This document shows, one piece after another, positions 20,020 to 54,747 of a DNA stretch of 64,000 nt. The translations under genes were made by a program, and so were the position numbers. Below the pieces are notes generated by a model. The model saw only the letters and a program-made list of their open reading frames with translations, made no database searches and was not told where the DNA came from. The DNA is from Thermoanaerobaculia bacterium (GTDB taxonomy: Bacteria > Acidobacteriota > Thermoanaerobaculia > Multivoradales > SZUA-115), in the NCBI GenBank assembly GCA_036274895.1, contig DASUEU010000027.1, forward strand, positions 136,883 through 200,882, given 5' to 3'. Within the stretch, counting starts at the first letter, position 1. Each line of letters opens with the position of its first letter.

Positions 20020-20436
20020 TCAGCGACTCTGTGGCTCAGGCACCACGGCCGTGGCTTCGATCTCGACCTTGGCCTCGGGCACTACCAGGGCCGCCACCTG
20101 GAGCAAGGCCATGGCCGGGTAACAGCGGCCCATCACCCGGCGGTAGGCCTCGCCCACGGCCGAAAGATCCGCCAGATACTCGGCGCACGAGGTGACGTAG
20201 AAGTTGATGCGGCCGATGTGCTCCGGCCCACCCCCGGCCGCTCGCACCACCGCGAGCACGTTGCCGAGGGCTGCTTCGAACTGTTCGATGAAGGTGGTGC
20301 CGCGCAGCTGGCCCCCGGCGTCCCAGGCGATCTGCCCGGCGACGAAGAGCAGGCGCCCTCCGGGCGGCGCCAGCATGCCGTTCGAGTAGCCCCGTGGCGC
20401 GCCCAGGGACTCGGGGTTGATCGGGGTCATGGCCGC
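20020..20436 (-). CDS. RidA/YjgF/TdcF family enamine/imine deaminase
   Basis: ~140-aa C-terminal portion of the long ORF 20020..21036. The start could be at 20436 or 20448. The upstream 600 nt of that ORF is an artefact overlapping the SDR gene. Confidence 0.7.
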   Translation of the reverse strand, partial: AAMTPINPESLGAPRGYSNGMLAPPGGRLLFVAGQIAWDAGGQLRGTTFIEQFEAALGNVLAVVRAAGGGPEHIGRINFYVTSCAEYLADLSAVGEAYRRVMGRCYPAMALLQVAALVVPEAKVEIEATAVVPEPQSR

Positions 20437-20438
20437 GC

Positions 20439-21218
20439 TCATGGGATGTAACCTCCGCCGTCGAGCACCCAGGCCTGACCGTTGACCCCCTTGGCCCGCG
20501 GATCGCACAGGCAGCGCACCAGATAGGCCACCTCCTCGGGCTCGAAGATCCGGCCCTGGGGGCTCATCTTGGCCAGGCGGGTGCGGGCGTCCTGGTCCGA
20601 AAGCCCCGTCTTCTCGCGGATCTTGGCCACCGACTGCTCGGTCATCGGGGTGGCGACGTAGCCGGGGCAGACGGCGTTGACCGTCACCCCCTTGGCGGCG
20701 AGCTCCAGGGCGAGCGAGCGGGTCAGACCGATGACGGCATGCTTGGTGGCGGTGTAGGCCGAGATGTAGGGAGCCCCGGCCAGGCCGGCCACCGAGGCGA
20801 CGTTGACCACCCGCCCCCAGCCGCGGCTCGCCATCTCCGGGGCGAACTCCTTGGCGCAGAGGAAGACCCCGTGGACGTTGACCTGCATCAGCCTCTCGAG
20901 CTCGGACAGCTCGAGCAGCTTGAGTGGTGCCGAGGAGGCGATGCCGGCGTTGTTGACCAGGATGTCGACCTGGCCGAAGGCCTCGCGGGCGGCGCGGCCG
21001 AGGGCTTCCACCTCGTCGGGCAGGGTGACGTCGCACCGCGCGGCGGCGGCCCGGTAGCCCTGGCTCACCAGGCTCGCGGCCACCGCCTCGACGTCGGAGC
21101 GGGAACGGGCGGCGACCATCACGGCCGCCCCCTCGCGGGCCAGCTCGGCCGCCACCGCGGCGCCGATGCCTCGGCCGCCGCCGGTGACGACGGCCGTCTT
21201 GCCGGAAAGCGCGCTCAT
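20439..21218 (-). CDS. SDR family oxidoreductase (3-hydroxyacyl-CoA dehydrogenase/FabG-like)
   Basis: TGGGRGIG cofactor motif, NNAG, and the S...Y..K catalytic motif (YTATK). Confidence 0.85.
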   Translation of the reverse strand: MSALSGKTAVVTGGGRGIGAAVAAELAREGAAVMVAARSRSDVEAVAASLVSQGYRAAAARCDVTLPDEVEALGRAAREAFGQVDILVNNAGIASSAPLKLLELSELERLMQVNVHGVFLCAKEFAPEMASRGWGRVVNVASVAGLAGAPYISAYTATKHAVIGLTRSLALELAAKGVTVNAVCPGYVATPMTEQSVAKIREKTGLSDQDARTRLAKMSPQGRIFEPEEVAYLVRCLCDPRAKGVNGQAWVLDGGGYIP

Positions 21219-21997
21219 CCTTCTCCTCCCAGGGCTGCGATCACCGCATCCGCGACGATGCCGCCCAGCTCATGGATCGTGGCGCGACCCTCTTCGGCGG
21301 TGGCCGCCGCCGGGTCGCCGAAATAGGCCATGGGTCCTCCGGCCTCGGCGAAGGTGCGCTGGCCGGCGCGGATCGCCTCCGAGAGGGAGCGGGGGTTGGC
21401 GGCGAGCTGCCGCGCCCGGCCCTGGCGCACCCGCTCGGGCTGGGCGGCGAGGACGATCGAGGTCTCGTATTGGCCGGCGTGGCAGGCCCCGGAGCGCAGC
21501 TCCTCGGTCAGCCGCAGGGCCCAGGGCTTCCTGGCGACGTTGGGGAAGACCACCGGCACGCTGCCTCGGGACCGGGCGGCGACCACCGCAGCTTCGAGCG
21601 CCGCCAGGTGGGCCGGGTCGAGGTGAGCGTTGGCCAGGGCCAGGGCGCGGGCTCCCTGTCGGGTCCAGGCCAGGGCGAGGTCGGCCACCAGGGCCGTGAC
21701 CGTCTCGGCCGTCACCGACAGAGTGCCGGGAAAGGCATCTGCGAAGGGGGCCGCGACGTAGTCGAGGCCCGGGAGCACCACGGCCGTCCAGCCCGCCCGG
21801 GCCAGGATCTCGGCCCCGGCGCTGGCCATGGCCCCGGCGATGATGCCGTCGGTGAGCAGGGAGAGGTGGGGACCGTGGGCCTCGACGGCGCCCACCGGCA
21901 GGATGCCCACCAGCCGCTCCCTGGGGAGGGCTGCGAATTCCGTCCAGGTCAGGGCGGCCAGCTCGAGCGCCGCGCCGCCGGTCTCGGGTTGGCTCAT
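21215..21997 (-). CDS. Creatininase-family amidohydrolase
   Basis: ILPVGAVEAHGPHL and CHAGQYETS motifs of the creatinine amidohydrolase family. Confidence 0.7.
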   Translation of the reverse strand: MSQPETGGAALELAALTWTEFAALPRERLVGILPVGAVEAHGPHLSLLTDGIIAGAMASAGAEILARAGWTAVVLPGLDYVAAPFADAFPGTLSVTAETVTALVADLALAWTRQGARALALANAHLDPAHLAALEAAVVAARSRGSVPVVFPNVARKPWALRLTEELRSGACHAGQYETSIVLAAQPERVRQGRARQLAANPRSLSEAIRAGQRTFAEAGGPMAYFGDPAAATAEEGRATIHELGGIVADAVIAALGGEG

Positions 21998-22731
21998 CGC
22001 GCTCGGGGCTCACTGGCGACGAAGACGGCGGCGATCGAGCCCACTCCCTCGAGCCGCGCCAGGGAGACCGGCTCGAAGCGGTAGGAGGCGGCGCTCACCC
22101 CGGCGGGACCGGGAGCGGCGAAGTCCGGGCCGACGCCCGGCGGCGGCAGCTGCCCGAAGAGCTCGAGACGGCCGAAGCGGGAGCGCAGCAGATCCTCCCA
22201 CTCCCAGAGGTAGAGATTGTTGGGTTGGAAGCTCGAAGCGCGGTGCCGCTCGAGGGTGGTCTCGTCGATCACGGGTGGCACCGAGGCGATCAGGCGACCT
22301 TCTGGGGTGAGGTGCGAGGCCGCCCAGGACACCGCCCGGTCCAAGTCGAGGAGCTGAGCGAGCACGTTGCCGGCGACGATCAGCTCGAAGGAGCCGTTCG
22401 GGCCCCCGGCGCTGTCGAAGGAGCGACAGGAGAAGGTGATCCGGGGGTCGCTGTAACGCCGCCGGGCGAAGGCGACGGACTTGGGGTCGGGATCGAGGGC
22501 CGCCACCGACCGCGCCCCGGCGCGCAGCAGCTCGGCGGCGCCGTAGCCGGTGCCGCAGCCGAGGTCACAGACTGTTCGTCCCTCGGCGAAGCGGCCGGCG
22601 AAGAGATAGAAGCCGAGGTGGGCCTCGAAGAGATCATTGGCCACCACCGGCGCCACCGCCCGGCTTCCCGGCGGCAGGCCGTAGCGCAAGCGGGCCAGAC
22701 GGTTCCTGACACGGCGAAGAAGCGAGGCCAT
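21994..22731 (-). CDS. Class I SAM-dependent methyltransferase
   Basis: DLGCGTGY motif I; AGGAGGG RBS before the ATG at 22731; overlaps the creatininase start by 4 bp. Confidence 0.7.
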   Translation of the reverse strand: MASLLRRVRNRLARLRYGLPPGSRAVAPVVANDLFEAHLGFYLFAGRFAEGRTVCDLGCGTGYGAAELLRAGARSVAALDPDPKSVAFARRRYSDPRITFSCRSFDSAGGPNGSFELIVAGNVLAQLLDLDRAVSWAASHLTPEGRLIASVPPVIDETTLERHRASSFQPNNLYLWEWEDLLRSRFGRLELFGQLPPPGVGPDFAAPGPAGVSAASYRFEPVSLARLEGVGSIAAVFVASEPRAR

Positions 22732-22821
22732 TTCCCTCCTCGGAGCAGCGGGCAGTGAGTCGCGCTCGCGGCGAAACGCGGCGATTCTATCGCCCGGAAG
22801 CCGCGTGTTAATCTTCGCGCC

Positions 22822-23376
22822 ATGCTCCGAGAAGAGCCCGAGATGCTGGTGCCGCGGGCACCGGAAGGCGAGAGGCTCAACCTGCTCTTGCCGTCCCCGA
22901 TCGGCGAGCTCGGGCTGACCCTGCGCGGCACCGTGGTGACGGCCCTCACCATCGCGCCCACCGACGCCCTGCGCGAACGCTACACGCCGTTCACCGAACT
23001 CGATGGCGACGAGTTCCTGGAAGAGGTGGTGGGGCGTTTTTCCGAGTACTTCGCGGGCGCCCGCACCTCCTTGGAGCTCGAGCACGACCTGTCGGATTTC
23101 GAGCTCTCGAGCTTCGCGCGGCGGGTGTTCCGGGAGACGGTGAAGATCCCCTACGGCCGCACCCGCACCTACAACAAGGTGGCCGCCCTGGCCGGGCGCC
23201 CGGAGGCCTACCGGCAAGTGCTCGCCATCCTGGTCGCCAACCCGATCCCGATCCTCATCCCGTGCCACCGGGTGGTGACCCACAAGTCGGGGATCGGCAG
23301 CTTCGTCGGCGGCCAGGACCGCAAGCGCTGGTTGATGGCGATGGAAAAAGAGGCGCTCAAGGAGCAGGACCGGTAG
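22822..23376 (+). CDS. ogt: Methylated-DNA-protein-cysteine methyltransferase
   Basis: IPCHRVV active-site motif and DNA-binding HTH (TYNKVAALAG). Confidence 0.85.
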   Translation: MLREEPEMLVPRAPEGERLNLLLPSPIGELGLTLRGTVVTALTIAPTDALRERYTPFTELDGDEFLEEVVGRFSEYFAGARTSLELEHDLSDFELSSFARRVFRETVKIPYGRTRTYNKVAALAGRPEAYRQVLAILVANPIPILIPCHRVVTHKSGIGSFVGGQDRKRWLMAMEKEALKEQDR

Positions 23377-23509
23377 GGGCGCGGTCTCCGCGCCCCGCGG
23401 CGATCTGCGGCATCCGGTGCAGGGGCCGACCAATGTGTCGGCCCTCCCCGCCCCGGAGGGCGGACACGCTGGTCCGCCCCTACGACCGGAGGCGCACGGC
23501 CGTGCGCCC

Positions 23510-24668
23510 CTACTCCCTCTCGAGGACGATCTCGACCTCGGTCTCGTCCCGAGCCTCGACGGTGAACGTCTTCTCCACCGTTTCGAAGCCCGGTCGCACC
23601 ACCTGCAGGCGGTGCTCGCCCGGATCGATGATCAGGCCCTTCCTCAGGCGACCGAGATCTTCTGCGGTGCCCAGGAAGCGCCCGTCGAGATAGACCGAGG
23701 CGTCCCCCGGCTCGATCACGAGGCGAACGCGGCCCGGCTCACCCCTCACGTCGTAGGCCTCGGCGTCCTCGGCCGGCGGCGCCTTGGCCTCGGCGCCATC
23801 TTCCTGCCAGTACCAGCGCCCTCCCGACCCCTGGCGGGGAGCCTGCTCGCGCTTCGGTGCCGCCCGCTCGAAGATCTCCTCCGGCGGGACGGAGTCTCCC
23901 GGTTGCAGGGTGTCCTCCAGGTCGATCACCACGCCCGAGCGGATCTCGTAATCACGGACGAGGGTCTCATAGCCGTCCAGGTAGACCACCACCTGGTAGC
24001 TGCCCTCGGGCAGCCACAGGAAGCTCGGAAAGCCGTCGAAGTCGTCGGCAGTGCCCATCTGCTGGCCGTCGACCCAGATCTCGGCATGCTCGGGGTTGAC
24101 GTCGAAGTCCAGGGCACCGGAGCGCTCCTGGGTCTCGTACCAGTAGTAGGGGCGGTCGTAGTAGGAGCGGTAGCGGGGATGGTAGTAGTAGGGGTAGTAG
24201 GGATCGTTCCAGCCCCACCACGGCCAGTAGTAGCCGCCGTACCAGCCCCAGTAGTAGTTGTAGTTGTTGGAATGGCGCCCGTAGTAGGTGCCGGGGCGAT
24301 GGTGGTGGCCGTCCCCCGAGCCCCGGGGCCGCTCGACTCGCGTGCGGCCCGGCGACGGCGAACCTTCCCAGCTCGGACGGGTGCGGCCGGCCCGGGCCGA
24401 GGAGGAGGAAGAGCGGTCGCCGCTCTCCCGGGACGAGGCCGAAGGGGACGAGCCCGACGACGAGCGGGAGGAGGAGCTCGAGGCCGACGAGCCGGAAGAC
24501 GAGGACGACCCTGAGGTCGTGCGCTCCACGCGCACCGGGGGACCGCTGCTATCGCTCGGCCTCGAGCGCTCCCCGGCGATCACGCTCTGCGCGCTCGCGA
24601 GGAAGGCGGCGGTTCCGAGCACGAGCGCGACTCGAGGCCACGCGGGGACCTGGCTGGGGACCTTCATG
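23510..24668 (-). CDS. Secreted protein with a Ser-rich and a Tyr/Trp-rich low-complexity region and two C-terminal PEGA domains
   Basis: Signal peptide MKVPSQVPAWPRVALVLGTAAFLASA; ~55-aa segment YYGRHSNNYNYYWGWYGGYYWPWWGWNDPYYPYYYHPRY...; two PEGA-like units (LPEGSYQVVVYLDGYE; IDPGEHRLQVVRPGFE). ATGA overlap with the upstream GT2. Confidence 0.7.
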
Positions 24669-25599
24669 ACGGAATCTCCTTTCCGAGCCCCGCGCCTTCT
24701 TGCCAACCTCGATGGAGGCCTCGGATGTAGTGGAATCGAAGCACTTCCTCCCACACGCGCGGTAGCTTCAGGGGCCACTTCTGCAAGCCCCGGGCCAGTG
24801 CCTCGAGAAGGCGCTGCCGGCGCGGGGAGGGCAACGGCGGTGGCCCCTCGGGTGCCAACCCCAGGAAGGGCCCCAGCTCCGGGTGGAGGCGGTAGAAGAC
24901 CACCCCGCAGTAGCCGGCCTTCTCCTGGCGCACGGCGAAGCGCTCGAGGGTGGTCGGGTGATCGTGGTCGACCACCGCGCGAGGTTCGTAGACCAGCCTC
25001 AGGCCGCGCCGGAACAGGCGATAGCTGGCCTCGATGTCCTCCCAGGCCGGATAGGGGAAGCGCAGGTCGAAGGGCTCGGAGCGCAGCAGCTCCGTGGCGA
25101 GGGAGAGGTTCGAGGTGTAGAAGAAGTTGAAGGGAACCGCCTCGCCATCAGTGATCAGGGCGTAGCCGAATTGAAGACCGTGCTCGTTGATGTAGCGCAG
25201 AAAGGGGTCGAGCCGCATCCGCGGGTGCCAGCGGGTGTAGCCGATCACCGCGAGCTCGGGAGGGCAGCCGCGGGAGACGAAGGCCCCGTGGTGCGAGGAA
25301 AGCCAGCGCGGCGTCGGGACGGTGTCGTCCCCCAGGAAGGCCACCCGGGGGGCCCGGGCCAGCTCCACCCCTCGGTTGCGGGCCGCCGCCGGGCCGCGGT
25401 TCTCCTGGCGCAGAAAGCGAAACGGTCGCGACGAGCGATGGCCGGCGAGCAGCGCCGCCGTGCCATCGGTCGAGCCGTCGTCGACCACGATCACCTCGAA
25501 GTCCGGCGCCTCCACCTGAGCCTCGAGGGCGGTGAGCACCTCCGGCAGGACGTCCATGCGGTTGTAGGTGGGGATGACGATCGAGTAGGCGGGGACCAC
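24664..25599 (-). CDS. Glycosyltransferase family 2
   Basis: SIVIPTYNR...VIVVDDGSTDGT GT-A fold motifs. Confidence 0.85.
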   Translation of the reverse strand: MVPAYSIVIPTYNRMDVLPEVLTALEAQVEAPDFEVIVVDDGSTDGTAALLAGHRSSRPFRFLRQENRGPAAARNRGVELARAPRVAFLGDDTVPTPRWLSSHHGAFVSRGCPPELAVIGYTRWHPRMRLDPFLRYINEHGLQFGYALITDGEAVPFNFFYTSNLSLATELLRSEPFDLRFPYPAWEDIEASYRLFRRGLRLVYEPRAVVDHDHPTTLERFAVRQEKAGYCGVVFYRLHPELGPFLGLAPEGPPPLPSPRRQRLLEALARGLQKWPLKLPRVWEEVLRFHYIRGLHRGWQEGAGLGKEIPS

Positions 25600-25691
25600 G
25601 AGGCGAAACTACTCCAAAGCCCCCGAGGGCGCCAGGCCGCAGGGTAGCTCCCGCCGGAATACCCGCCTCTGAATCTCCGTATGGCATAGTC

Positions 25692-26324
25692 GTGGTCACC
25701 GAGATGGCAATCCCCCAACCCTCGATCCTCACGGCGCCGGCCTCCGCCGAGAGCGAGCTGGTGAGCCTGGCTCGCAGTGGCGACGCTGCGGCCTGTGACG
25801 AGCTGGCCCGCCGGTTCCGGCAGCCGGCCTATCTGCTCGCCCTCCAGCTGCTGGGCGACCAGGAAGATGCCCTCGACGTCGCCCAGGACTCGCTCCTGCG
25901 CTTCTTCACCAAGCTCCACCGTTTCCGCTCCGGGCTGCCCGTCAAACCCTGGCTGCTGTCGATCGTCCGCAACCGAGCCCTCGACCTGGTGCGGCGCAAG
26001 AAGGTGCGCCGTGCCGAGCCCCTGGAGAACGAAGAAGGGGATTACCGGCCGGAGCTGATCGACCATGGTGTCGACCCGGAGACCGACTACGCTCGGCGCG
26101 AGCTCAAGGAGCGCCTGTGGCGGGCCCTCGGGCTGTTGCCCGCCAACCAGCGCGAGATCCTCGTCCTGCGCGACTACCAGGACCTCTCCTACGCCGAGAT
26201 CGCCAGGGTGCTCGACGTTCCGGTGGGCACGGTGATGTCCCGCCTGCACCGCGCCCGCGCCGGCCTGCGCGTCCTGCTCGAGCGGGAGGGCTCGGCCGGC
26301 TTCCCGAGGAGCACTGCCCTGTGA
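25692..26324 (+). CDS. ECF-subfamily RNA polymerase sigma-70 factor
   Basis: Sigma70_r2 (LLALQLLGDQEDALDVAQDSLLRFF) and r4 (LSYAEIARVLDVPVGTVMSRLHRAR) regions. Confidence 0.85.
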   Translation: MVTEMAIPQPSILTAPASAESELVSLARSGDAAACDELARRFRQPAYLLALQLLGDQEDALDVAQDSLLRFFTKLHRFRSGLPVKPWLLSIVRNRALDLVRRKKVRRAEPLENEEGDYRPELIDHGVDPETDYARRELKERLWRALGLLPANQREILVLRDYQDLSYAEIARVLDVPVGTVMSRLHRARAGLRVLLEREGSAGFPRSTAL

Positions 26325-26761
26325 GCAAGAATCCGCCTCTCTTCGACGAGTCCCTCCTCTCCGGCTACCTCGACGGCGAGCTCACCCAGGCCGAGTCGCA
26401 GCGAGTCCGCCTCCACCTCGAGACCGACCCGGAAGCCCGCCGCATCTTCGACGACCTCTCGCGCATGCGCCAGGCCGCCCGCGGCACCCGCTTCCGGCTG
26501 CCCGACGACCGCCAGTGGGACGAGCGACCCAAGCACTCCGGCAGCCGGCTGGCTCGCGATGCCGGCTGGCTGCTGCTGGCCATCTGGCTGGTCGCGACCA
26601 CCGGCTTCGGCCTCTATCACCTGGCGGTGTCCCCGGAAGGGCTGTGGCTGAAGCTGACCATCTTCGCACCGCTGTCAGGCATCGCCTTGCTGTTCGGCTC
26701 GACGGTGCTCGATCGACTGAAGACCCTTCCGACCGACCGCTATCGGAGAGTGGAGAAATGA
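26321..26761 (+). CDS. Anti-sigma factor (zf-HC2-like, single TM)
   Basis: The GTG start overlaps the sigma stop (GTGA). LLSGYLDGELT...H motif, then a TM segment. Confidence 0.65.
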   Translation: MSKNPPLFDESLLSGYLDGELTQAESQRVRLHLETDPEARRIFDDLSRMRQAARGTRFRLPDDRQWDERPKHSGSRLARDAGWLLLAIWLVATTGFGLYHLAVSPEGLWLKLTIFAPLSGIALLFGSTVLDRLKTLPTDRYRRVEK

Positions 26762-27084
26762 TCGTTGCCACCACGGAGACCATCGTCGGCAAGAAGGTGG
26801 TCCGCACCCTCGGGCTGGTACGCGGCAACGCCGTGCGAGCCCGCCACATCGGGCGCGACCTGATGGCCGCCCTGCGCAATCTGGTGGGTGGCGAGATCCC
26901 CGAGTACACCAAGCTGATCGCCGAGGCCCGAGAGCAGGCCCTCGACCGCATGGTGGAGGAGGCTCACGAGCTGGGAGCGGGGGCCGTGCTGGGCGTGCGC
27001 TTCTCGACCTCGGAGCTGACCCGCGGCGCGGCCGAGCTGCTGGCCTACGGCACCGCCGTCGAGCTCGCCGACGACCAAGACTGA
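26758..27084 (+). CDS. YbjQ/UPF0145 family protein
   Basis: ATGA-coupled to the anti-sigma gene; MIVATTETIVGK...GNAV.A YbjQ-like sequence. Confidence 0.7.
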   Translation: MIVATTETIVGKKVVRTLGLVRGNAVRARHIGRDLMAALRNLVGGEIPEYTKLIAEAREQALDRMVEEAHELGAGAVLGVRFSTSELTRGAAELLAYGTAVELADDQD

Positions 27085-27312: not shown

Positions 27313-29409
27313 ATGGCCCTTTCACGGTTTCCGGAGCTGCGCGCCGGCCTCGCCGGGCTGGCCATCCTGGTGTCTCTGCTCGCCACCGCAAGCGAGGCCC
27401 AAGGCCGGCCCAATCTGGTGCTCCTCACCCTCGACACCACCCGAGCCGACCACCTCGGTGCCTGGGGTTGGCCGCACGCCCAAACCCCCCACCTCGACGC
27501 CCTGGCGGCTCGCGGCGTCCGCTTCGTGCGCTGTGACACGGCTGCGCCGATCACCCTGCCCAGCCACGCCACCCTGCTCACCGGCTTCTTCCCCCCACGC
27601 CACGGCGTGCGGGACAACGGCACCTTCGTGCTCGAAGAGAAAGTCGAGACCGTGGCCGAGAGGCTGGCGGCGAGCGGTTACGACACCGCGGCCGTGGTGT
27701 CGGCCATGGTGCTCGCCCGGCGGCACGGCCTGGGCCAGGGCTTTCGCTCCTACGACGATGACCTCGGTCCGGCCGACGCGGCCGGCTTGGTGGTGGCCGA
27801 GCGCACGGCCGAGGCCACGACCACGGCCGCCCTTGGCGCCCTGACCCGGCTCCGGGAGCCCTTCCTCCTCTGGGTGCACTACTTCGATCCGCACGAGGAG
27901 TACAGCCCACCCGCGGCTTTCGCCGCTCGGGCGACCGGCCCGCACCGCCTCTACGACGGCGAGATCTCCTTCATGGACAGCGAGATCGGCCGGTTCCTCG
28001 CGCGCTTGCCTGCCGACACCGTGGTGGTGGTGGTGGGCGACCACGGCGAGATGCTGGGCGATCACGGCGAGCTGACCCACGGTCTGACCCTGGGGCCGGG
28101 CGCCCGCCGGGTGCCCCTGCTGCTGGCCGGCCCCGGGCTGCCGGCCGGGACGCGCCGCGACTGCCTGGTGCGCACGGCGGACGTGGCTCCCACCCTCCTC
28201 GCCCTGGCGGGAGCGACCATCCCCGCTGGCCTGGAGGGGCGCAGCCTGCTCTCCCTCGCCCGGGACGGCGGGCCCTGTGAGCGCACCAGCTACGCCGAGA
28301 GCTTCCTGCCTTTCTTCGCCTACAAGTGGTACCCGCTGCGCGCCATCTCGGACGGATCCAGCCTCTACCTGGCGGCTCCGCGCTCGAGCCTCTTCGACCT
28401 CGACCGGGATCCGGCCGAGCTCGCGGACCTGGCGTCTTCCTCGCCGAAGCGGATGGAAGCCTGGGGCCGCCGCTTCGACGAGCTGCTGGCCGCCATGGGG
28501 GAGCGGCGCGAAGTCACGATCGAGGCGGACAACCAGCTCTCCGAGGAGCAACGCCGGCAGCTCCAGGCTCTGGGTTACGTCGGCGCGAGCGGGGGTGGCA
28601 CCGTGGAGGCGACCTTGCCCGATCCGCGCGGCATGACGACCATCGCGCGGCAGCTGCACGATGCCGCCGGAGCCGTCCAGCTCGGTCGCTGCAAAGAGGT
28701 CTTGCCGACCCTCCAGTCGATCGTCAAGCAAGACCCCCACAACTTTCCCGCTCTGACCCTGGCCGGCCAGTGTCTGGAGGAGGCGGGCAAGCTCGAGGCT
28801 GCGCTCGGCCTCTTCGCGCAGGCCAGCCGCGAGAACGGCCTGTCCGCCGTGCCGATCGCCAACGCGGCCGGCGTCCTCCTGGCCCTGGGGCGTGAGGCCG
28901 AGGCCGAACGCGAGTACCGGCGCGCCCTCACCCTCGACCCGACGCAGGCCGAGTCCGCCTCGAACCTGGCCCGGCTGCTGCGACAGCGTGGCGCGATGGC
29001 GGAGGCGCTGGCCGTGCTCGAATCGGCCCTGCGTGCCGGCGGCCATGGCCCGGCGGTCTACCTCGAGCGCGGTCTGGCCCGCGCTGAGCTCGGCCGGCTG
29101 GCGGAGGCCCTCGCCGACTTCCGCGAGGCCGCCCGGCGCAGCCCCAGCGACCCGGTGCCGCTCGAGAACGCCGCCCGGGCGGCCTACCAGCTGGGGAGGA
29201 AACGGGAGAGCGCCCAGCTCTACGAGGAGCTGCTGCGCCTCGCCGAGGAGAGGGTGGACCTGTGGAAGACCCTGGGCGCCCTCTATCTCTACGAGCTGGG
29301 CGAGCCCGAGCGGGCTGCCAGCGCCTTCCGGCGTGCCTTCGCCAAAGAGTCCGACCCGGCCGAGCGGGCCAAGCTGCAGGCGTTGCTGGCAGAGCTCGAG
29401 CAGCGGTAG
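27313..29409 (+). CDS. Sulfatase/alkaline-phosphatase-superfamily hydrolase with a C-terminal TPR domain
   Basis: LDTTRADHLG and HYFDPHEEY motifs. I did not see a canonical CxPxR FGly motif. The C-terminal ~280 aa form TPR repeats. Confidence 0.7.
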   Translation: MALSRFPELRAGLAGLAILVSLLATASEAQGRPNLVLLTLDTTRADHLGAWGWPHAQTPHLDALAARGVRFVRCDTAAPITLPSHATLLTGFFPPRHGVRDNGTFVLEEKVETVAERLAASGYDTAAVVSAMVLARRHGLGQGFRSYDDDLGPADAAGLVVAERTAEATTTAALGALTRLREPFLLWVHYFDPHEEYSPPAAFAARATGPHRLYDGEISFMDSEIGRFLARLPADTVVVVVGDHGEMLGDHGELTHGLTLGPGARRVPLLLAGPGLPAGTRRDCLVRTADVAPTLLALAGATIPAGLEGRSLLSLARDGGPCERTSYAESFLPFFAYKWYPLRAISDGSSLYLAAPRSSLFDLDRDPAELADLASSSPKRMEAWGRRFDELLAAMGERREVTIEADNQLSEEQRRQLQALGYVGASGGGTVEATLPDPRGMTTIARQLHDAAGAVQLGRCKEVLPTLQSIVKQDPHNFPALTLAGQCLEEAGKLEAALGLFAQASRENGLSAVPIANAAGVLLALGREAEAEREYRRALTLDPTQAESASNLARLLRQRGAMAEALAVLESALRAGGHGPAVYLERGLARAELGRLAEALADFREAARRSPSDPVPLENAARAAYQLGRKRESAQLYEELLRLAEERVDLWKTLGALYLYELGEPERAASAFRRAFAKESDPAERAKLQALLAELEQR

Positions 29410-29418
29410 CGGGGACCC

Positions 29419-30444
29419 TCAGCGCCTCCGCCCTTTGCCCGGCGCCAGTCGCCAGACCGAGCGGCCCTCGGGCTGCTCGAGCACCCACCAGGAGCCGTCG
29501 GGGGCGGTGGCGGAGGCCGCCGCCGGCAGCCGCCCCGGCAGGGCCACCCCCCGCGTGAGGTCGATCCAGCCGTCCCCGACCGCCACCAGATCCGTGTCGG
29601 GCAGCGGCAGGGCGCGCCGGCCGTCCGCAAACCGGCCGGCCGCCGAGGGCGTGAGGTCCCGGCGCGACAGCAGCTGCCATTCCCCGAGCGCGGACAGGGC
29701 CAGCAGCCACGAGCCGTGCGCTACCAGGGCCTCGATCCGGCTGCCGTCGAAGAGGGGGAGGCGGGCCTTCACGGCTCCCTCCGGTCCCAGCAGCTCGACG
29801 GTCGGTGGCGGCGCCACCGCCGGCTCGATGGCGAGCGAATAGGCCGGCCCACGGCCGCGCGCCACCAGCTTGCCGTTCGCCTCGTAGGCGAGCGCGGTGA
29901 GCGGCCCGGCCTCCCAGGCTCCGGCCTGGCTCTGGCAGTCCGGCAGTACCAAGACCACTCTGCCGCTCGGGCCGCTGCCGCCGAGCGTGGCCTCGGCGAG
30001 TCCGGCGATGCCTTGCGCCGGGCCGGGCACCAGCCGCGAGACCCCGCTCTGCCGTGCGCGGCAGACTTCGCGCCCCTCCTCGATCCTCACCAAGTCGCCC
30101 CCGAGGGCCAGCCACAACGTGCCGTCCCGACCGAAGGCGAGGTCGGAGAGCCAGCCGTCCGCGGTGTAGAGAAAGCCGTTCCCTCCTTCGGGCAGCTCCA
30201 CGCGCACCCGGATGCCGTCGCTCCAAGCCAGGAGGCGGCGCTGTGGGTGGAAGGCGGCCGGGCCCTCACCCGGCAGGTCGCGGACCTTCTCGAGGGAGAG
30301 GCGGCCTTGCTTGGCACCGAAAGCCAGACCGGGCGCCCAGCCCTCGGCAATCCCGGCCGGGGTGCCGGCGGCGTGTACGACCGAGCCTGAAAGGATGAGC
30401 CCGAGCGAAAGCCCGAGAAGGAACGAGGGCCGGGTGGATCTCAT
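29419..30444 (-). CDS. Secreted hypothetical protein
   Basis: Signal peptide; no recognisable domain. Confidence 0.5.
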   Translation of the reverse strand: MRSTRPSFLLGLSLGLILSGSVVHAAGTPAGIAEGWAPGLAFGAKQGRLSLEKVRDLPGEGPAAFHPQRRLLAWSDGIRVRVELPEGGNGFLYTADGWLSDLAFGRDGTLWLALGGDLVRIEEGREVCRARQSGVSRLVPGPAQGIAGLAEATLGGSGPSGRVVLVLPDCQSQAGAWEAGPLTALAYEANGKLVARGRGPAYSLAIEPAVAPPPTVELLGPEGAVKARLPLFDGSRIEALVAHGSWLLALSALGEWQLLSRRDLTPSAAGRFADGRRALPLPDTDLVAVGDGWIDLTRGVALPGRLPAAASATAPDGSWWVLEQPEGRSVWRLAPGKGRRR

Positions 30445-33906: not shown

Positions 33907-35187
33907 TCACGGGTAGTAGAGATAGCAGACGCTGGCCCAGTCGCTGCAGCAGTTGCCGTCGAACTCGCAGCCCCAGTTGCAGCTGCAAGCCGCTTCCGGG
34001 GGATCTTGGCCGCAGCGGCCGTAGCAGCTGGCGTCCCAATCGTCGGGGTAGGTCTGGCAGTCGGTGACCACCCGCAGCGTGGCCCCGAAGGTGCCGCAGT
34101 AGGGAGGGACACCGCTCTGCGAGCCGCCGTTGCAGTTCTGGGCCGAGGCCGAGACCAGGGACTCGAGGTGTCCGTCCGCCACCGGGGCAGAGAACCACAG
34201 GGTGCCCATGGGATCGTCGCAGCACCAGGGGTCGTTCTCCTCGATGTACTCGCTGACCGCGATCCCCTGTCCATCACAGGCGCCGTCCTGGATCATTTCG
34301 TAGAAGGAACCCTGCCAGACCTCGACCGGATCGGTCAGATCGCCGCCGTACCAGGAGCCGTAAGGGTTCGACCACTGGGAGTCCCAGGTGTCGCAGTTGC
34401 AGACGTTGCCCCACTCGCCGCCATTTGGCTTGGAGGGCTTGGGCCCCTTGAAGCAGGTGCGATGGTCGTCCGGGCAATCCCGACCGCGGGGGCTCGAGCC
34501 GAAGTAGACCCCGATGTCGCCCGTCATGGCCCCCTGGCCTGGGGAGTGGAAGGAGTCCAGGTTGGTACTGCACACGCCGTGGCCCGCGTGGCCATTGCAT
34601 TCGAGGGCCCAGTAGCGGTTCATGAAGCGGTCGCGGCTGTAGACCAGGGCGCTGCACCGGCAGTAGTCGGGGTACCAGGAGCGCAGGCCGAGCTGCGGGG
34701 CTGGGACCGGAGGGGCCTCGGTCCGCCGTCGGCCGGACTTGAACTCGCTCGCCGTCCAGCCGGTTTCGCCCCGGAACTCCTCCTCCAGCTTCGCCAGGGA
34801 GAGCTCGAGCTGCCCGCAAAGCTCATCCAGCCCCAGCGCGAGTAGGCAACGGTCCCTTTCGACCTCGAGCACCGCCCGCTGGTAGAGCAGGTCGACCAGC
34901 CGGCCGAGGGAGGCCGAGACGCCGAGCTCCCGGGCCCGCTCGCGAACCTGCGCCTCGACCCGGTGGCGTGAGGCCGTCGCCAGCTGATGCTCGCGGCGCT
35001 CGAGGGAGGAGGCGAGGGCCAGCTTCGCCTGCGGATCGGCATCCAGCTGTGCCTTGGTCTCGCCGAGGGAGACGAGCCCACCGAGAGTTTCCCCTGCAAG
35101 GCAGGGAAGGGTGGTCGCCACCACGAGCAGGGCGGCGAGAGTCAAGAGCAGTGACGAGATTGCGCCGAGGTTTTTCGTTCTCACCAT
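33907..35187 (-). CDS. Secreted Cys-rich protein with a C-terminal somatomedin-B-like cysteine signature
   Basis: AGGAGG RBS and signal peptide (MVRTKNLGAISSLLLTLAALLVVATTLPCLAGE); >25 Cys. The C-terminus CSCNWGCEFDGNCCSDWASVC fits C-x-C-x3-C-x5-CC-x-D-[aromatic]-x3-C. Confidence 0.65.
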   Translation of the reverse strand: MVRTKNLGAISSLLLTLAALLVVATTLPCLAGETLGGLVSLGETKAQLDADPQAKLALASSLERREHQLATASRHRVEAQVRERARELGVSASLGRLVDLLYQRAVLEVERDRCLLALGLDELCGQLELSLAKLEEEFRGETGWTASEFKSGRRRTEAPPVPAPQLGLRSWYPDYCRCSALVYSRDRFMNRYWALECNGHAGHGVCSTNLDSFHSPGQGAMTGDIGVYFGSSPRGRDCPDDHRTCFKGPKPSKPNGGEWGNVCNCDTWDSQWSNPYGSWYGGDLTDPVEVWQGSFYEMIQDGACDGQGIAVSEYIEENDPWCCDDPMGTLWFSAPVADGHLESLVSASAQNCNGGSQSGVPPYCGTFGATLRVVTDCQTYPDDWDASCYGRCGQDPPEAACSCNWGCEFDGNCCSDWASVCYLYYP

Positions 35188-35287
35188 GGCACCTCCTGTG
35201 CGGTTATGGCAATGAGCGGTATATTGCCCCAAGAAGCGACCCCGCCCCGCCGCGGCGGGGCAGAGTCGATGAGAGATCCCTCCTCCG

Positions 35288-35461
35288 TCAGAACGAGCTG
35301 TTACAGCTACCGCAGTGGTGCGAGCCGTCGTGCCCGGCGGACCGATCGCAGGAGCCCTTCCAGCTGTTGGGGCAATCACCGTGGGTGGCGCCGCACTCGC
35401 CCTGATCCTCCGGGTCCTGGCTGTCCGGGGGCTGCTTCTTGGAAGTGATCTTGGGGCTCAT
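35288..35461 (-). CDS. Unannotated small ORF (57 aa) encoding a Cys/His-rich peptide (MSPKITSKKQPPDSQDPEDQGECGATHGDCPNSWKGSCDRSAGHDGSHHCGSCNSSF)
   Basis: AGGAGG sits ~8 nt upstream of the ATG; GC3 ~85%, typical of local genes. It is below the 60-aa cutoff of the ORF track. Confidence 0.45.
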   Translation of the reverse strand: MSPKITSKKQPPDSQDPEDQGECGATHGDCPNSWKGSCDRSAGHDGSHHCGSCNSSF

Positions 35462-47992: not shown

Positions 47993-48265
47993 AACTTCGC
48001 CGATAGTCGACCAGCGGCCTGGCCAGAGCTGGTACCAAGAGTGCCCGTCAAGCACCTCGTTTCGCGTATCGAAGACCCGCGCATGGGACAGAGAATCCAA
48101 TCGTGAAGGCGAGGCGGACCGGCAACCGGCCGGTCCCTGACCACCAAGACGACGGTGCGCCGTCGGCTCCGGGACGCTGAGGGCGTAACGCCCGGAGGTT
48201 CGAGACTGCCTGACCTCTCTGAGTCGGACCTGGATCGAGCAGGGCAAGCCCCTCAGGAGGACCGC

Positions 48266-50146
48266 ATGCTGCACCCCGCGTTGAGGTTGACCATCGGTGC
48301 CGTCCTTCTCGCAGCCTTGGGCGGGATCGTCGCCATCTCGTACTTCGGCAGGTTCTTCGGGCCTGCCCGTACCCTGGTCGAGACGTTGCCGTCGACGTCC
48401 CTCGGGCTCACCGCACGGTCGCTCAACGGGCGGATCCAGCCCAGGGGCCGGCCGACGACGTACTGGTTCGAGCTCGGCGAGACGACGGCTTACGGACGTA
48501 CGACCAAGCCGGTCAGCCTGCCGCCGCGAATCGGCGCGTACTACCGGGAGTCCTGGGACGAGCACGGCCGAGCGGGGTGGTTCGGTGGCCTCGGCTCGGG
48601 GGACGAGCTCGTGCACGAAGGGAGCGGCGGTGTCACCGGAGGGCACGTCTCGTGGAACCTCGGCACCGAGACCGCACCTGCCAATCAAGATGACAACCAC
48701 AATGACGGGATCGGCACGGTCAAGCTCGCGCAGTACGTGTTCACGGGACCCGTCCCGCTCGGCCCGCCCGATCTCTCGCTCGGCGGTGGGGATCCGGACT
48801 TCCGCGGTGCGAGGGTCTCGGTATCGGTACGGGGCGACCGGGGCTTGACCCTCGGCCCGGCGGAGCTCGTCTTCTGGCTGCAGAGCACGCCCAACGTTGC
48901 GGATCTCGGCACCGACCGCGAGCGGTTCTCGAACTGGGCCTACACCCGCTCCCGCCTGACCGGCGGGCTGCTGTCGTCGCGCTGGGAGAGGGTCTCCTAC
49001 GTGCTCGACAACGACACCAACGCCTGGACGTACGCGGGGAACAACGTCAACGAAGACCGCGAGGACTACATCTACGTCCCTCTCGACCAGGTTCTCGGGC
49101 ACTTGAACGGCGACCTCTTCCACATGGTGGTGATGTTCGAGGCCGGGACGCCGCCCTACGGCCCATCGCCCGGCGGGGGCCGGCTGCGGTTCGACGAGAT
49201 CGAGATCGCCTATCGCAACGAGTCGGCCCTGATGGCCTCGAACGGCGGCAGGCTGAGGTCGGGGCCGGCGGGAGGAGGGCCGCTCGAGCGGCTCACCGAC
49301 GGGTGGCGCACAGGCGTGAACCGTACCTGGCGCAGCGCGCCCTGGCCGACCGCCCCCCTCGACTTCACCTACGAGCTCGCGGACCCCGTCGAGATCGACA
49401 CCATCCAGATCCATCAGGGCGATCCCGATTGCCCGAGCGAACGGGTGGAGGTGCACACGGGGTACAAGGGCTCGGCGCTGGCGCCGCTCGTCTCCGGGGT
49501 GATTCCGGAGAAGAGCGCGGCAGGTCCGAGCTTCACCTACTTCCTGAACCGGCTACCCGCCCCGGTCATGGCGGACGTGGTCCGGGTGCGCGTCTCGTCG
49601 GGCTACCGGAAGGAGGCCTGGTGCCTCGGCGAGATCGAAGTGTTCGGCCAGGACGCGGTGGTCGAGACGGACAATGACTGGTACGGCGTGACCGCCGACT
49701 TCGACGGCCTCGAAGCCGGCAAGGAGTATCACTGGCGGCTCTGGGCCGAGAGCGGCGGCGTCAAGGTGAAGACCGACGACGCTACGTTCACCGTCCCCGA
49801 GACGACGGCGCCCGAGCTGAGAACATTGGGCGTCACGCGCCTCGGCAACGGCTCGGCGACGTTCGAAGGTCGCCTCAACCCCCTGGGCGTCCCCACCAAC
49901 TACTGCTTCGAGTACGGGGTCGACCCGCCCAGGTGGGAAGACCCGACCTATGCCCAGAAGACCCTCCTGCGCTATGGCGGACGGCAGCTCACCCCCCGGA
50001 CGGTCACCGACGTCGTGACCGGTCTGGTCCCCGGGACGACCTACCACGTCCGGATGGTGGGCGAGCTACAGACCGGGGTCGAGATCGCTTGTGGAGACTC
50101 CAATCCGGTCAAAGAGCGGACGAGCGTGTCCTTTGTGGCTCGATAG
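48266..50146 (+). CDS. Membrane-anchored protein with FN3-like and discoidin (F5/8 type C)-like domains
   Basis: CAGGAGGA RBS; N-terminal TM; FN3-like motifs (TYWFELGETTAYG, NYCFEYGVDP...TTYHVRMV); discoidin-like end (...AWCLGEIEVFG). Confidence 0.55.
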   Translation: MLHPALRLTIGAVLLAALGGIVAISYFGRFFGPARTLVETLPSTSLGLTARSLNGRIQPRGRPTTYWFELGETTAYGRTTKPVSLPPRIGAYYRESWDEHGRAGWFGGLGSGDELVHEGSGGVTGGHVSWNLGTETAPANQDDNHNDGIGTVKLAQYVFTGPVPLGPPDLSLGGGDPDFRGARVSVSVRGDRGLTLGPAELVFWLQSTPNVADLGTDRERFSNWAYTRSRLTGGLLSSRWERVSYVLDNDTNAWTYAGNNVNEDREDYIYVPLDQVLGHLNGDLFHMVVMFEAGTPPYGPSPGGGRLRFDEIEIAYRNESALMASNGGRLRSGPAGGGPLERLTDGWRTGVNRTWRSAPWPTAPLDFTYELADPVEIDTIQIHQGDPDCPSERVEVHTGYKGSALAPLVSGVIPEKSAAGPSFTYFLNRLPAPVMADVVRVRVSSGYRKEAWCLGEIEVFGQDAVVETDNDWYGVTADFDGLEAGKEYHWRLWAESGGVKVKTDDATFTVPETTAPELRTLGVTRLGNGSATFEGRLNPLGVPTNYCFEYGVDPPRWEDPTYAQKTLLRYGGRQLTPRTVTDVVTGLVPGTTYHVRMVGELQTGVEIACGDSNPVKERTSVSFVAR

Positions 50147-53370: not shown

Positions 53371-54747
53371 ATGAATGACCTGACCCAGGGTTCGGTCCAC
53401 CGTCACCTCTCGCGCCTGGCGGGGGTGATCCTGTTCGGCATGGTCTTCCAGACCCTCTACTACCTGGTGGACCTCTACTTCGTGGCCAAGGTGAGCAGCG
53501 AGGCGGTGGCCGCGGTGTCGCTCTCCGGCAACCTGATGCTGGTGACGGTGGCGCTCACCCAGGCCCTGACCATCGGCACCACCTCGCTGGTGGCCCACGC
53601 CTGGGGCCGCAAGGACTACGGCGAGGCCCGCCGGATCTTCAACCAGTCCCAGGTGCTGGCCACCGGCGTCGGCCTGCTGTTCGTGACCGCGGCCTTCGCC
53701 CTGCGGGAACGCTTCGCCGCGGGCCTCGCCGCGGACGAGGTCACCGCCCGGGCGGTGCGCGACTATCTCGACTGGTTCCTGCCCGCCATGGGGGTGCAGT
53801 TCCTGCTGGTGGCTATGGCCGCCGCCCTGCGCGGTGCGGGCGAGGTGAAGGCGCCGATGATGGTGCAGATGGTCGCCGTACTGATGAACACCATCCTGGC
53901 GCCGGTCTTGATCGTCGGCTGGGGCACCGGGCGACCGTTGGGCGTGGCTGGCGCCGGCCTCGCCACCTTCCTCTCGATCTGCGCCGGCGCCCTGCTGCTG
54001 GTGCTGTGGGTGAGGAAGCGCCACGACGTGCTGCACTTCGAGCCCCACCACTGGTGGCCGGACTGGGCTCTCTGGCGGCGGATGCTCGGCATCGGGCTGC
54101 CCACCGGCGGCGAGTTCCTGCTGATGTCGGTCTACGCCACCATGATCTACGGCCTGATCCGCGGCTTCGGCTCCCACGCCCAGGCCGGCTTCGGGGTGGG
54201 CATGCGGGTGTTGCAGACCGGCTTCATGCCGGCCCTGGCGGTGGGCTTCGCGGTGGCGCCGCTGGCCGGCCAGAACTTCGGCGCCGGGCACTTCGACCGG
54301 GTGCGGCAGAGCTTCAAGGCCGGGCTGCTGTGGGCGAGCGTGATCATGCTGACCTTCATGGCCCTCTGCCACATCTCGCCCATCGCCATGATCCGCCCCT
54401 TCGCCGAGGATCCCGAGGTGATCGCGGTGGGCACCGAGATGCTCGGCATCCTCTCCTTCAATTTCCTGGCGGCGGGCGTGGTGTTCGTCGCGAGCGCCCT
54501 GTTCCAGGCCATGGGCAACACCATCCCCTCGCTGATCGCCTCGGGCTCGCGCCTCCTGCTCTTCGCGGTGCCGGCGATGGTGGTCTCTCAGCGCCCCGGC
54601 TTCGCCCTGCGCCAGCTCTGGTGGCTGTCCGTGGGCTCGGTGCTGGTACAGATGGTCCTCGCCCTGTGGCTGCTCCGGCGCGAGATGCGCATCAAGGAGG
54701 ACGGGCTGGCGGCGGCCCGGAACGAGGCCTTCAGTCGAAGTGCTTGA
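53371..54747 (+). CDS. MATE family efflux transporter
   Basis: 12-TM protein with an N-terminus (LYYLVDLYFVAKVSSEAVAAVSL) typical of MatE. Confidence 0.8.
   Translation: MNDLTQGSVHRHLSRLAGVILFGMVFQTLYYLVDLYFVAKVSSEAVAAVSLSGNLMLVTVALTQALTIGTTSLVAHAWGRKDYGEARRIFNQSQVLATGVGLLFVTAAFALRERFAAGLAADEVTARAVRDYLDWFLPAMGVQFLLVAMAAALRGAGEVKAPMMVQMVAVLMNTILAPVLIVGWGTGRPLGVAGAGLATFLSICAGALLLVLWVRKRHDVLHFEPHHWWPDWALWRRMLGIGLPTGGEFLLMSVYATMIYGLIRGFGSHAQAGFGVGMRVLQTGFMPALAVGFAVAPLAGQNFGAGHFDRVRQSFKAGLLWASVIMLTFMALCHISPIAMIRPFAEDPEVIAVGTEMLGILSFNFLAAGVVFVASALFQAMGNTIPSLIASGSRLLLFAVPAMVVSQRPGFALRQLWWLSVGSVLVQMVLALWLLRREMRIKEDGLAAARNEAFSRSA

Follow-up and report, generated by a model that had tools for sequence, protein, structure and literature searches.

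We analyzed a 64-kb stretch of DNA from a Thermoanaerobaculia bacterium (contig DASUEU010000027.1, positions 136,883 to 200,882; hereafter the window), in which the minus strand carries a gene for a predicted secreted protein with two PEGA domains and a segment extremely rich in Tyr and Trp, directly preceded by a gene for a family 2 glycosyltransferase (GT2). Gene layout, reading frames and composition were read on the window, on the minus strand for the PEGA and GT2 genes. To avoid antisense open reading frames (ORFs) in DNA of 70% GC, the gene caller also demanded that GC1 exceed GC2.

In its longest ORF version the PEGA gene begins with a GTG and spans positions 23510–24778 of the minus strand. 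However, the true start is the ATG at 24667–24665, and not the GTG at 24778, because the ATG has a Shine-Dalgarno-like AGGAGA ahead of it, overlaps the GT2 stop codon (TGA, 24666–24664) in an ATGA, and yields the deposited protein: the 385-aa product is identical to P0001, annotated as 'PEGA domain-containing protein [Thermoanaerobaculia bacterium]'. The AGGAGA motif is also present in L087, a relative with 79% identity. All TAC and TGG codons of the Tyr/Trp-rich stretch lie in one unbroken frame with the signal peptide and both PEGA domains, so that no frameshift or assembly artefact is indicated.

A conserved aromatic segment in a PEGA protein family

The predicted protein consists of a signal peptide, a basic Ser/Pro/Arg-rich tract, a Gly/Tyr/Trp-rich segment and two PEGA domains separated by a charged linker (Table 1). 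The initial annotation of this locus had named two PEGA domains after the aromatic segment, and the Pfam search recovers both: PF08308 matches in two stretches with E=6.4e-17 and 61.7 bits against a cutoff of 20.8, and homologues also match. In an AlphaFold2 model built on a 59-sequence alignment, residues 183–250 and 312–381 are all-beta with a predicted local distance difference test score (pLDDT) above 90, whereas pLDDT is below 50 for nearly all of residues 27–175 and for residues 279–307. A Foldseek search against the PDB returned only the transthyretin-like domains of carboxypeptidases D, N and M (probability 1.0) and the TIE protein of B. anthracis; a sequence-profile search of the PDB returned low-complexity noise only. 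By its sequence and by its transthyretin-like beta-sandwich fold, the protein is a member of the PEGA family (PF08308).

Signal-peptide features were recognized by eye: the basic residues K3 and R12, a hydrophobic helix at residues 11–25 in the AlphaFold2 model, and a potential cleavage site after ASA, before Q. A hydrophobic N-terminus is common to all aligned homologues. The protein is not a lipoprotein, since it contains no Cys, as is the case for 170 of 200 family members; PEP-CTERM, LPXTG and autotransporter types were likewise ruled out on sequence, with no C-terminal sorting signal found. The poly-Ser tract that had been reported ahead of the aromatic stretch is confirmed as a run at residues ~51–90 with 60–75% Ser per 20-aa window, and an HHH triplet lies between the Ser/Pro/Arg tract and the aromatic segment. 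Across the family the Ser tract varies in length and in Ser content, a density of 12 or more Ser per 30 aa being found in just 72 of 176 homologues, and relatives carry Ser/Pro-rich low-complexity tracts such as PPPSYSPPPSS. The N-terminal half (~150 residues) is basic, with a pI of about 9.5–10, and the PEGA half acidic, with a pI of about 4.5; this polarity is found family-wide. Two candidate assignments for the N-terminus were rejected. An NCBIfam match to SemD/SinC, at 22 bits where the cutoff is 160, is noise from the Ser-rich composition, and a serine-rich repeat adhesin of the SRRP/Fap1 type is not supported, given a Ser tract of only ~40 aa and variable, a C-terminus ending in VLERE without LPXTG, and no adjacent accessory Sec or GT4 GtfA/B genes in the window.

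The string originally described as a ~55-aa stretch of more than 60% Tyr/Trp corresponds to residues 128–177 (24137–24286, minus strand). Both figures were too high: the stretch is 50 aa long and contains 19 Tyr and 7 Trp (26/50, 52%), with 23/40 (57.5%) in the densest 40-aa window. It is nonetheless real and highly unusual, being the sole place in a six-frame scan of the window with more than 10 Tyr plus Trp per 50 aa (the maximum being 26). Such richness is notable in a genome of 70% GC, in which TAY codons are disfavoured.

The family to which the protein belongs is extensive. At least 311 relatives, nearly all of them 330–420 aa long, came up in a database search, and a profile search of 1.84 billion cluster representatives (50% identity) found 700 at E<=1e-30. 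In a survey that took one genome per species, relatives were present in 293 species genomes; among the 80 best of these, as listed, almost every one is a metagenome-assembled genome of Thermoanaerobaculia, Holophagae or other Acidobacteriota. The family is class-wide and probably single-copy. As for the suggestion to look for homologues with a Tyr/Trp-rich segment, the segment proved to be near-universal in this family of hundreds. An aromatic window occupies the same position, directly before the first PEGA domain, in all of the 120 best homologues, and 125 of 140 new independent representatives at 50% identity have at least 12 Tyr plus Trp per 40 aa. Nine representatives have fewer than 10, among them four N-terminal fragments, a 2255-aa multi-PEGA giant and a protein with an acidic N-terminus. 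One protein of that length, P0333 (2255 aa), has 22 stretches that match the family profile, lacks the aromatic segment and begins with a Cys-rich, zinc-finger-like N-terminus; its architecture differs from that of the family.

Over 171 distinct sequences the segment has a median length of 58 aa and contains 25% Tyr, 25% Gly, 10% Trp, 9% Pro, 7% Arg and 4.5% His, the commonest dipeptides being YG, GY, YY, GG, WG and YP. Composition is better conserved across the family than exact sequence. Individual positions are also retained: Trp153 of the WPWW motif is kept in at least 90% of aligned members, and the 25-aa core YGGYYWPWWGWNDPYYPYYYHPRYR is the same in the 79%-identical relative, in which the Ser tract has diverged. 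Ratios of nonsynonymous to synonymous substitution (dN/dS) were calculated by region with the Nei-Gojobori method for a single pair, the window gene and its relative L087. The ratio is 0.245 for the aromatic segment, 0.10 for the first PEGA domain, 0.19 for the second, 0.46 for the linker and 0.21 for the whole gene; at 0.245, the segment is under purifying selection as judged from this pair of sequences. The linker is longer and rich in Arg, Glu and Asp in many relatives. On the Wimley-White interface scale residues 128–177 sum to −20.5 kcal/mol, and the best 19-aa window has a family median of −13.1 kcal/mol, whereas none of 622 neighbouring proteins reaches −12. No Pfam or NCBIfam model covers the segment; the Pfam scan took in the segment by itself and four family members, with a limit of E<=10. 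A protein-database search with the 63-aa aromatic segment alone gave no hits, since three 5-residue words were not shared by any candidate.

These results bear on the doubt, raised at the outset, that the stretch might be an artefact of sequencing, assembly or frame, or else a recent insertion missing from homologues. Either explanation is refuted, to the point of practical certainty, by a single frame that runs from the signal peptide to the second PEGA domain, by the independent deposition of an identical protein, by homologous segments in hundreds of independent assemblies and by the low dN/dS of the segment.

Table 1. Features of the PEGA locus in the window (protein features by residue and position), and order of genes at related loci.
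Feature	Position	Strand	Basis and remarks
GT2 glycosyltransferase gene, 311 aa	24664–25599	−	PF00535 and NCBIfam; stop overlaps PEGA start (ATGA); basic C-terminus
PEGA gene, predicted secreted protein of 385 aa, stop included	23510–24667	−	ATG start; equals P0001; homologue alignment starts at the same Met
Shine-Dalgarno-like AGGAGA	24675–24680	−	7 nt before the ATG, within the 3' end of the GT2 gene; read from the sequence
Predicted signal peptide, residues 1–27 (MKVPSQVPAWPRVALVLGTAAFLASA then Q)	24587–24667	−	Inspection; AlphaFold2 helix 11–25
Basic Ser/Pro/Arg-rich tract, residues 33–119	24311–24571	−	pI 11.7; contains the poly-Ser run; pLDDT <50
Gly/Tyr/Trp-rich segment, residues 120–178	24134–24310	−	Composition, alignment; pLDDT 37–42
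PEGA domain 1, residues 183–250	23918–24121	−	Pfam; pLDDT >90, beta strands; invariant GALD...DDFDGFPxxLWL
Acidic/charged low-confidence linker, residues 256–307	23747–23902	−	Highest dN/dS of any region, 0.46
PEGA domain 2, residues 312–381	23525–23734	−	Pfam best stretch 319–384; pLDDT >94; invariant columns; motif DASVYLDGRFLGT...GEHRLxVVRPG
Intergenic region between the convergent PEGA and MGMT genes	23376–23508		Four perfect GC-rich hairpins, stems 8–9 bp
Locus of relative L083			Wzm, GT4, GT2, acetyltransferase-like, GT2, PIG-L, GT2, GT2, PEGA
Locus of relative L086			ECF sigma, anti-sigma, redoxin, M23 peptidase, GHMP kinase, Wzm, Wzt (Wzt_C), GT2, GT4, GT2, GT2, PEGA
Loci of relatives L084/L085			(YfhO, L084 only), Sulfatase, PIG-L/GT2, GT4, GT2, methyltransferase or TonB_C, GT2, PEGA

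The adjacent GT2 gene and glycan operons in relatives

The upstream gene had been assigned to GT2, with ATGA coupling to the PEGA gene, and both statements stand. Its product matches PF00535 (E=7.3e-28; 98 bits against a cutoff of 23.3) and contains the motifs VVDDGSTDGT and FLGDDT, in line with a DxD-type region for nucleotide-sugar binding near the N-terminus. No NCBIfam equivalog reaches its cutoff for this protein, the best being EpsD (159 against 370), and the absence of any hydrophobic 19-mer indicates that it has no transmembrane segment. Adjacency of the two genes was counted over 78 related loci. At 65 of these, a GT2 orthologue of 58–74% identity lies directly upstream of the PEGA gene on the same strand; the PEGA proteins at these loci are 35–53% identical, i.e., less conserved than the glycosyltransferase. 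Most often the two genes overlap by 4 nt; 64 of the 65 pairs either overlap or are separated by at most 29 nt, the one exception being a gap of 156 nt, and no gene falls between the two in any of the 65 adjacent pairs. Immediately upstream of the last GT2 gene, in contrast, the inserted genes vary by lineage: a module of extracytoplasmic function (ECF) sigma factor, anti-sigma factor and YbjQ, which the window shares with about 14 relatives, a methyltransferase, or a TonB_C protein. A homologue search with the GT2 protein returned more than 120 further clusters at 66–75% identity, all same-clade orthologues, which does not show a role for the subfamily outside the pairing.

The overlap of the two genes had been taken as a hint that the protein is glycosylated. 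It lends this idea no specific support, since 4-nt overlaps join many adjacent genes in these operons. The companion suggestion, that the protein acts with an exopolysaccharide, gains support from the conserved upstream GT2 gene and from the operons of relatives. The flanks of six loci were annotated with Pfam (±8 kb for L001 and L002, ±10 kb for L083–L086), and in L083 and L086 the GT2-PEGA pair forms the last two genes of a same-strand Wzm/Wzt-type glycan operon. No O-oligosaccharyltransferase-type (Wzy_C) gene was found in these six flanks; such a gene may be encoded in another part of the genome. The PEGA locus in relatives also adjoins the housekeeping envelope genes MurA, SLT and PBP1A, which, together with the class-wide conservation of the family, suggests a core role in the envelope.

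A sigma-70-like element, TGGCGC-N17-TAGTTT, was seen by eye in an alignment at ~25600–25640 on the minus strand, ending 6 nt before the GTG of the GT2 gene. Equivalent hexamers with the same spacing are present in L001, L003 and L008; a consensus promoter scan did not call the pair. The GT2-PEGA message may be leaderless. Control of the operon by the neighbouring ECF sigma factor was considered and rejected, because the ECF motif (GGAAY-N15-18-CGTA) is not found on the GT2 strand and the module is adjacent in only about 14 of the 78 loci.

Proposed role, known systems and competing explanations

Our working proposal is that the protein is exported to the envelope, that its basic aromatic tail sticks to a glycan or to a membrane interface, and that it works with a conserved glycan pathway; we regard this as quite possible, though short of probable. 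The protein would be a Sec-exported, non-lipidated component of the envelope, and a core, class-wide one in Acidobacteriota of the Thermoanaerobaculia type. Its N-terminal ~150 residues would comprise a variable Ser/Pro-rich spacer followed by a conserved Gly/Tyr/Trp 'sticker'. After export, this aromatic and mildly cationic segment would attach the protein to the envelope non-covalently and multivalently, either by CH-pi stacking on the sugar chains of a conserved surface glycan, or at the interface of the membrane or of lipopolysaccharide, or in both ways. It is Tyr and Trp that stack on sugars. The two PEGA domains, acidic and folded as transthyretin-like beta-sandwiches with a charged linker, would project from the point of attachment. 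The last cytoplasmic glycosyltransferase of the cooperating pathway would be the co-transcribed and translationally coupled GT2; its most likely task is the addition of a sugar to a glycan on a lipid carrier, which a Wzm/Wzt ABC transporter would then export. A bolder form of the proposal, which we consider unlikely, holds that the segment is an unrecognised envelope-anchoring module, a disordered aromatic 'sticker' to a class-specific glycan or outer-membrane interface or, more strongly still, the Tyr/Ser-linked core of a proteoglycan-like conjugate built by the Wzm/Wzt pathway; GT2 and PEGA would then be a dedicated enzyme-partner unit essential to the Thermoanaerobaculia envelope.

Several points weigh against the proposed role of the protein as an adhesive partner of a glycan pathway. 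We infer its binding partner and every step after export, and the Wimley-White and CH-pi arguments largely restate the composition of the segment. The low AlphaFold2 confidence may reflect poor alignability rather than true disorder, and we know of little precedent for carbohydrate binding by a disordered aromatic segment as opposed to a folded module. At 13 of the 78 loci no GT2 orthologue lies directly upstream, as in the Multivoradales type, in which an ECF sigma factor, an M23 peptidase and a GHMP kinase precede the PEGA gene. The 64 kb of the window contain no Wzm/Wzt or other genes of a glycan operon, the GT2-PEGA pair persisting by itself. Finally, the unrelated MGMT gene downstream is syntenic as well, and gene order can be kept throughout a single bacterial class even when the genes have no functional connection.

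Known systems resemble the locus in part. The PEGA domain was defined in cell-surface proteins by Adindla et al. (2004; PMC2447325). Likeness to such proteins lies in the two PEGA domains with their transthyretin-like fold, in their non-enzymatic nature and in predicted export; the difference is that neither the conserved Gly/Tyr/Trp N-terminal segment nor the pairing with GT2/Wzm/Wzt is found in any PEGA protein described in the searchable literature. That literature does not describe the present family, PEGA being named only in passing in the OCTIN paper, and the PEGA annotation itself carries no function. A secreted PEGA envelope protein is a known type; the conserved aromatic module and the partnership with a GT2 and a glycan operon set this family apart.

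The S-layer glycosylation (slg) clusters of Geobacillus stearothermophilus and Paenibacillus alvei combine Wzm/Wzt, several glycosyltransferases and Tyr O-glycosylation (PMC2943079). The operons of L083 and L086 are similar in placing a Ser/Tyr-rich, predicted secreted protein beside glycosyltransferases and Wzm/Wzt. They differ in that no WsaB/WsfB (Wzy_C-type) gene is found in the flanks, the protein has no SLH domain and the host is a diderm acidobacterium; moreover, the window lacks Wzm/Wzt, and the family, known from genes alone, gives no sign of lattice formation. ABC-dependent O-polysaccharide pathways of the E. coli O9a type use Wzm, a Wzt with a Wzt_C cap-binding domain, and a kinase/methyltransferase terminator. 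Relatives of the window carry matching parts on one strand (ABC2_membrane, ABC_tran with Wzt_C, a GHMP kinase or methyltransferase, and several GT2/GT4 genes). To our knowledge, however, O9a-type pathways have no dedicated secreted aromatic-rich protein as their last gene, and O-antigen loci are hypervariable, whereas the glycosyltransferases here are conserved at 58–75% identity across the loci and clusters searched. Dedicated glycosyltransferase-substrate pairs are exemplified by aah-aidA, tibC-tibA and hmw1C-hmw1A, in which the enzymes are heptosyltransferases or belong to GT41 and the substrates are autotransporter or two-partner-secretion adhesins. Compared by gene order alone, the likeness is a soluble glycosyltransferase encoded directly upstream of a protein with predicted Sec export and a repetitive, hydroxyl-rich region, and the difference is that the enzyme here is a GT2.

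Aromatic and Gly-rich low-complexity sequences occur in plant glycine-rich cell-wall proteins, in FUS-like Gly/Ser-Tyr domains and in Trp/Pro-rich interfacial peptides such as indolicidin, which contains WPWW. The present segment shares with them the GY, YG, YY and WG dipeptides, the WPWW motif (residues 148–151) and a strong predicted partitioning to the membrane interface, but the resemblance is compositional, without homology, and the segment is a fixed-position module of a two-domain envelope protein. WXXGXW/YXWGXW repeat proteins (PF12779) carry short Trp/Gly-rich motifs in secreted bacterial proteins; this family was rejected, with no match at E<=10 in the isolated segment or in four family members.

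Three alternatives to an adhesive segment working with a glycan pathway were weighed. The protein could be a glycoprotein acceptor, O-glycosylated in the Ser/Pro tract and/or in the Tyr-rich segment, which we judge rather unlikely. Modification would occur either in the cytoplasm, by the soluble GT2 before Sec export (cf. Aah/AIDA-I and HMW1C/HMW1), or in the periplasm, by en-bloc transfer of a lipid-linked glycan exported through Wzm/Wzt (cf. S-layer glycoproteins with Ser-, Thr- and Tyr-linked glycans). A glycosyltransferase without a transmembrane segment, coupled directly upstream at 65 of 78 loci, fits the cytoplasmic route, and a low-confidence N-terminus rich in the hydroxyl residues Ser and Tyr, with Ser/Pro-rich tracts in relatives, offers potential acceptor sites. 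The Wzm/Wzt genes and several glycosyltransferases in the same operon of relatives fit as well, and a precedent is established in the S-layer glycan clusters, which combine Wzm/Wzt with O-glycosylation of Tyr (PMC2943079). The GT2 also has a PDB sequence match to GalT1 of the pathway for the Ser-rich adhesin Fap1 (5hea, E=8e-13), and a PMT_2 GT-C enzyme is encoded in the window, though 30 kb away. However, the PDB and NCBIfam matches of the GT2 represent generic GT2 similarity, all far below family cutoffs, and no O-oligosaccharyltransferase/Wzy_C gene occurs in the six annotated flanks. The Ser tract is variable and weak in many members, and the GT2 is far more conserved (66–75%) than its supposed substrate (35–53%). 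An acceptor would have no need for about 35% Tyr plus Trp and 25% Gly, and the conservation of Trp is left unexplained. In a second alternative, the Gly/Tyr/Trp segment would drive self-association and the protein would be a structural matrix component of the envelope. Such a matrix could take the form of a gel or condensate, of an amyloid-like assembly, or of a dityrosine network cross-linked by oxidation, with its closest analogues in plant glycine-rich cell-wall proteins and Tyr-rich spore-coat proteins. The dominant YG, GY, YY, WG and YP dipeptides resemble, from general knowledge, those of known self-associating Gly/Tyr sequences; the low AlphaFold2 confidence of the segment and the conservation of composition over exact sequence agree with this, and a basic N-terminal half with an acidic PEGA half could favour head-to-tail association. 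Yet the exact 25-aa core kept between close relatives points to more than bulk composition, no peroxidase, laccase or tyrosinase gene is found in the conserved neighbourhood of the six annotated flanks, and oxidative cross-linking would be unlikely in anaerobic lineages, from which, as a matter of general knowledge, many members come. Since the conserved pairing with a glycosyltransferase is also left unexplained, we consider a self-associating matrix protein improbable.

The remaining alternative denies any specific link to the GT2 or the glycan operon: the protein would be a generic periplasmic or surface PEGA protein in an inherited gene order, its aromatic segment serving an unrelated role. 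Gene order conserved in the class does extend to functionally unrelated genes, because MGMT, creatininase, SDR and RidA are syntenic across the same loci. The loci without an adjacent GT2, the absence of the remaining glycan cluster from the window, and 4-nt overlaps that are common between neighbours in these genomes can all be read in this way. On the other hand, adjacency of GT2 and PEGA outlasts at least three independent insertions or rearrangements directly upstream of the GT2 gene, none of which splits the pair; it also persists in the genome of the window, where the pair has moved apart from the remaining cluster, and is kept down to 35–40% PEGA identity. Synteny without a functional link is, on this evidence, hard to credit, about as much so as the matrix protein.

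Soils, sediments and wastewater widely harbour Thermoanaerobaculia and related Acidobacteriota; almost all of these bacteria are uncultured, and their envelope is essentially unstudied. If the segment is a glycan or membrane anchor, or a platform for glycosylation, it would represent a new way for diderm bacteria to attach surface proteins. Work on the lineage's surface glycoconjugate would gain an entry point, and materials research a compact Tyr/Trp/Gly 'sticker' peptide of natural origin. If it is neither, the proteins still form a well-delimited family that merits its own family model.

Other features of the window

Of the four hairpins between the convergent PEGA and MGMT genes, two are near-identical (GGGCCGAC...GTCGGCCC and GGGCGGAC...GTCCGCCC) and lie in a 42-nt imperfect palindrome. 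There is no T-run, and a consensus terminator scan of this region found no canonical terminator. The region may nonetheless stop transcription from both sides, or it may be a small repeat element. Beyond it, at 20020–23376, the block of creatininase, SDR and RidA and the MGMT gene are syntenic with the PEGA locus in L001, L002 and L085, at ~42% PEGA identity; in those relatives RidA is followed by genes for an enoyl-CoA hydratase and an acyl-CoA dehydrogenase.

On the plus strand, upstream of the GT2 gene, an ECF-type promoter (GGAATA-N16-CGTATG, 25656–25681) ends only ~10 nt ahead of the GTG with which the ECF sigma gene (25692–26324) starts. The motif recurs at the corresponding position in about 10 related loci; the window has only 2 matches to it against 0.78 expected by chance. 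This arrangement suggests that the unit of ECF sigma factor, anti-sigma factor (26321–26761) and YbjQ (26761–27084) is autoregulated, with a very short leader or none. After this unit, on the same strand, the gene at 27313–29409 encodes a predicted secreted Sulfatase and TPR protein of 698 aa. A Sulfatase-family gene heads the glycan operon that ends in GT2-PEGA in L084 and L085, which does not imply orthology to the Sulfatase of the window.

The PMT_2 protein encoded at 54731–56242 on the minus strand is a GT-C glycosyltransferase of 503 aa (protein O-mannosyltransferase/ArnT-like, E=1.5e-23), not positionally linked to the PEGA locus. It has the second-highest Tyr plus Trp density in the window and could be relevant to periplasmic glycosylation. 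Two further ORFs, at 48155–50146 on the plus strand (663 aa) and 29419–30444 on the minus strand (341 aa), have a coding-like GC pattern and no Pfam match at E<=1e-5. At 33907–35379 on the minus strand, a 490-aa protein has a C-terminal match to Somatomedin_B (PF01033, E=9e-6; 26.3 bits against a cutoff of 23.1), a mainly eukaryotic domain.

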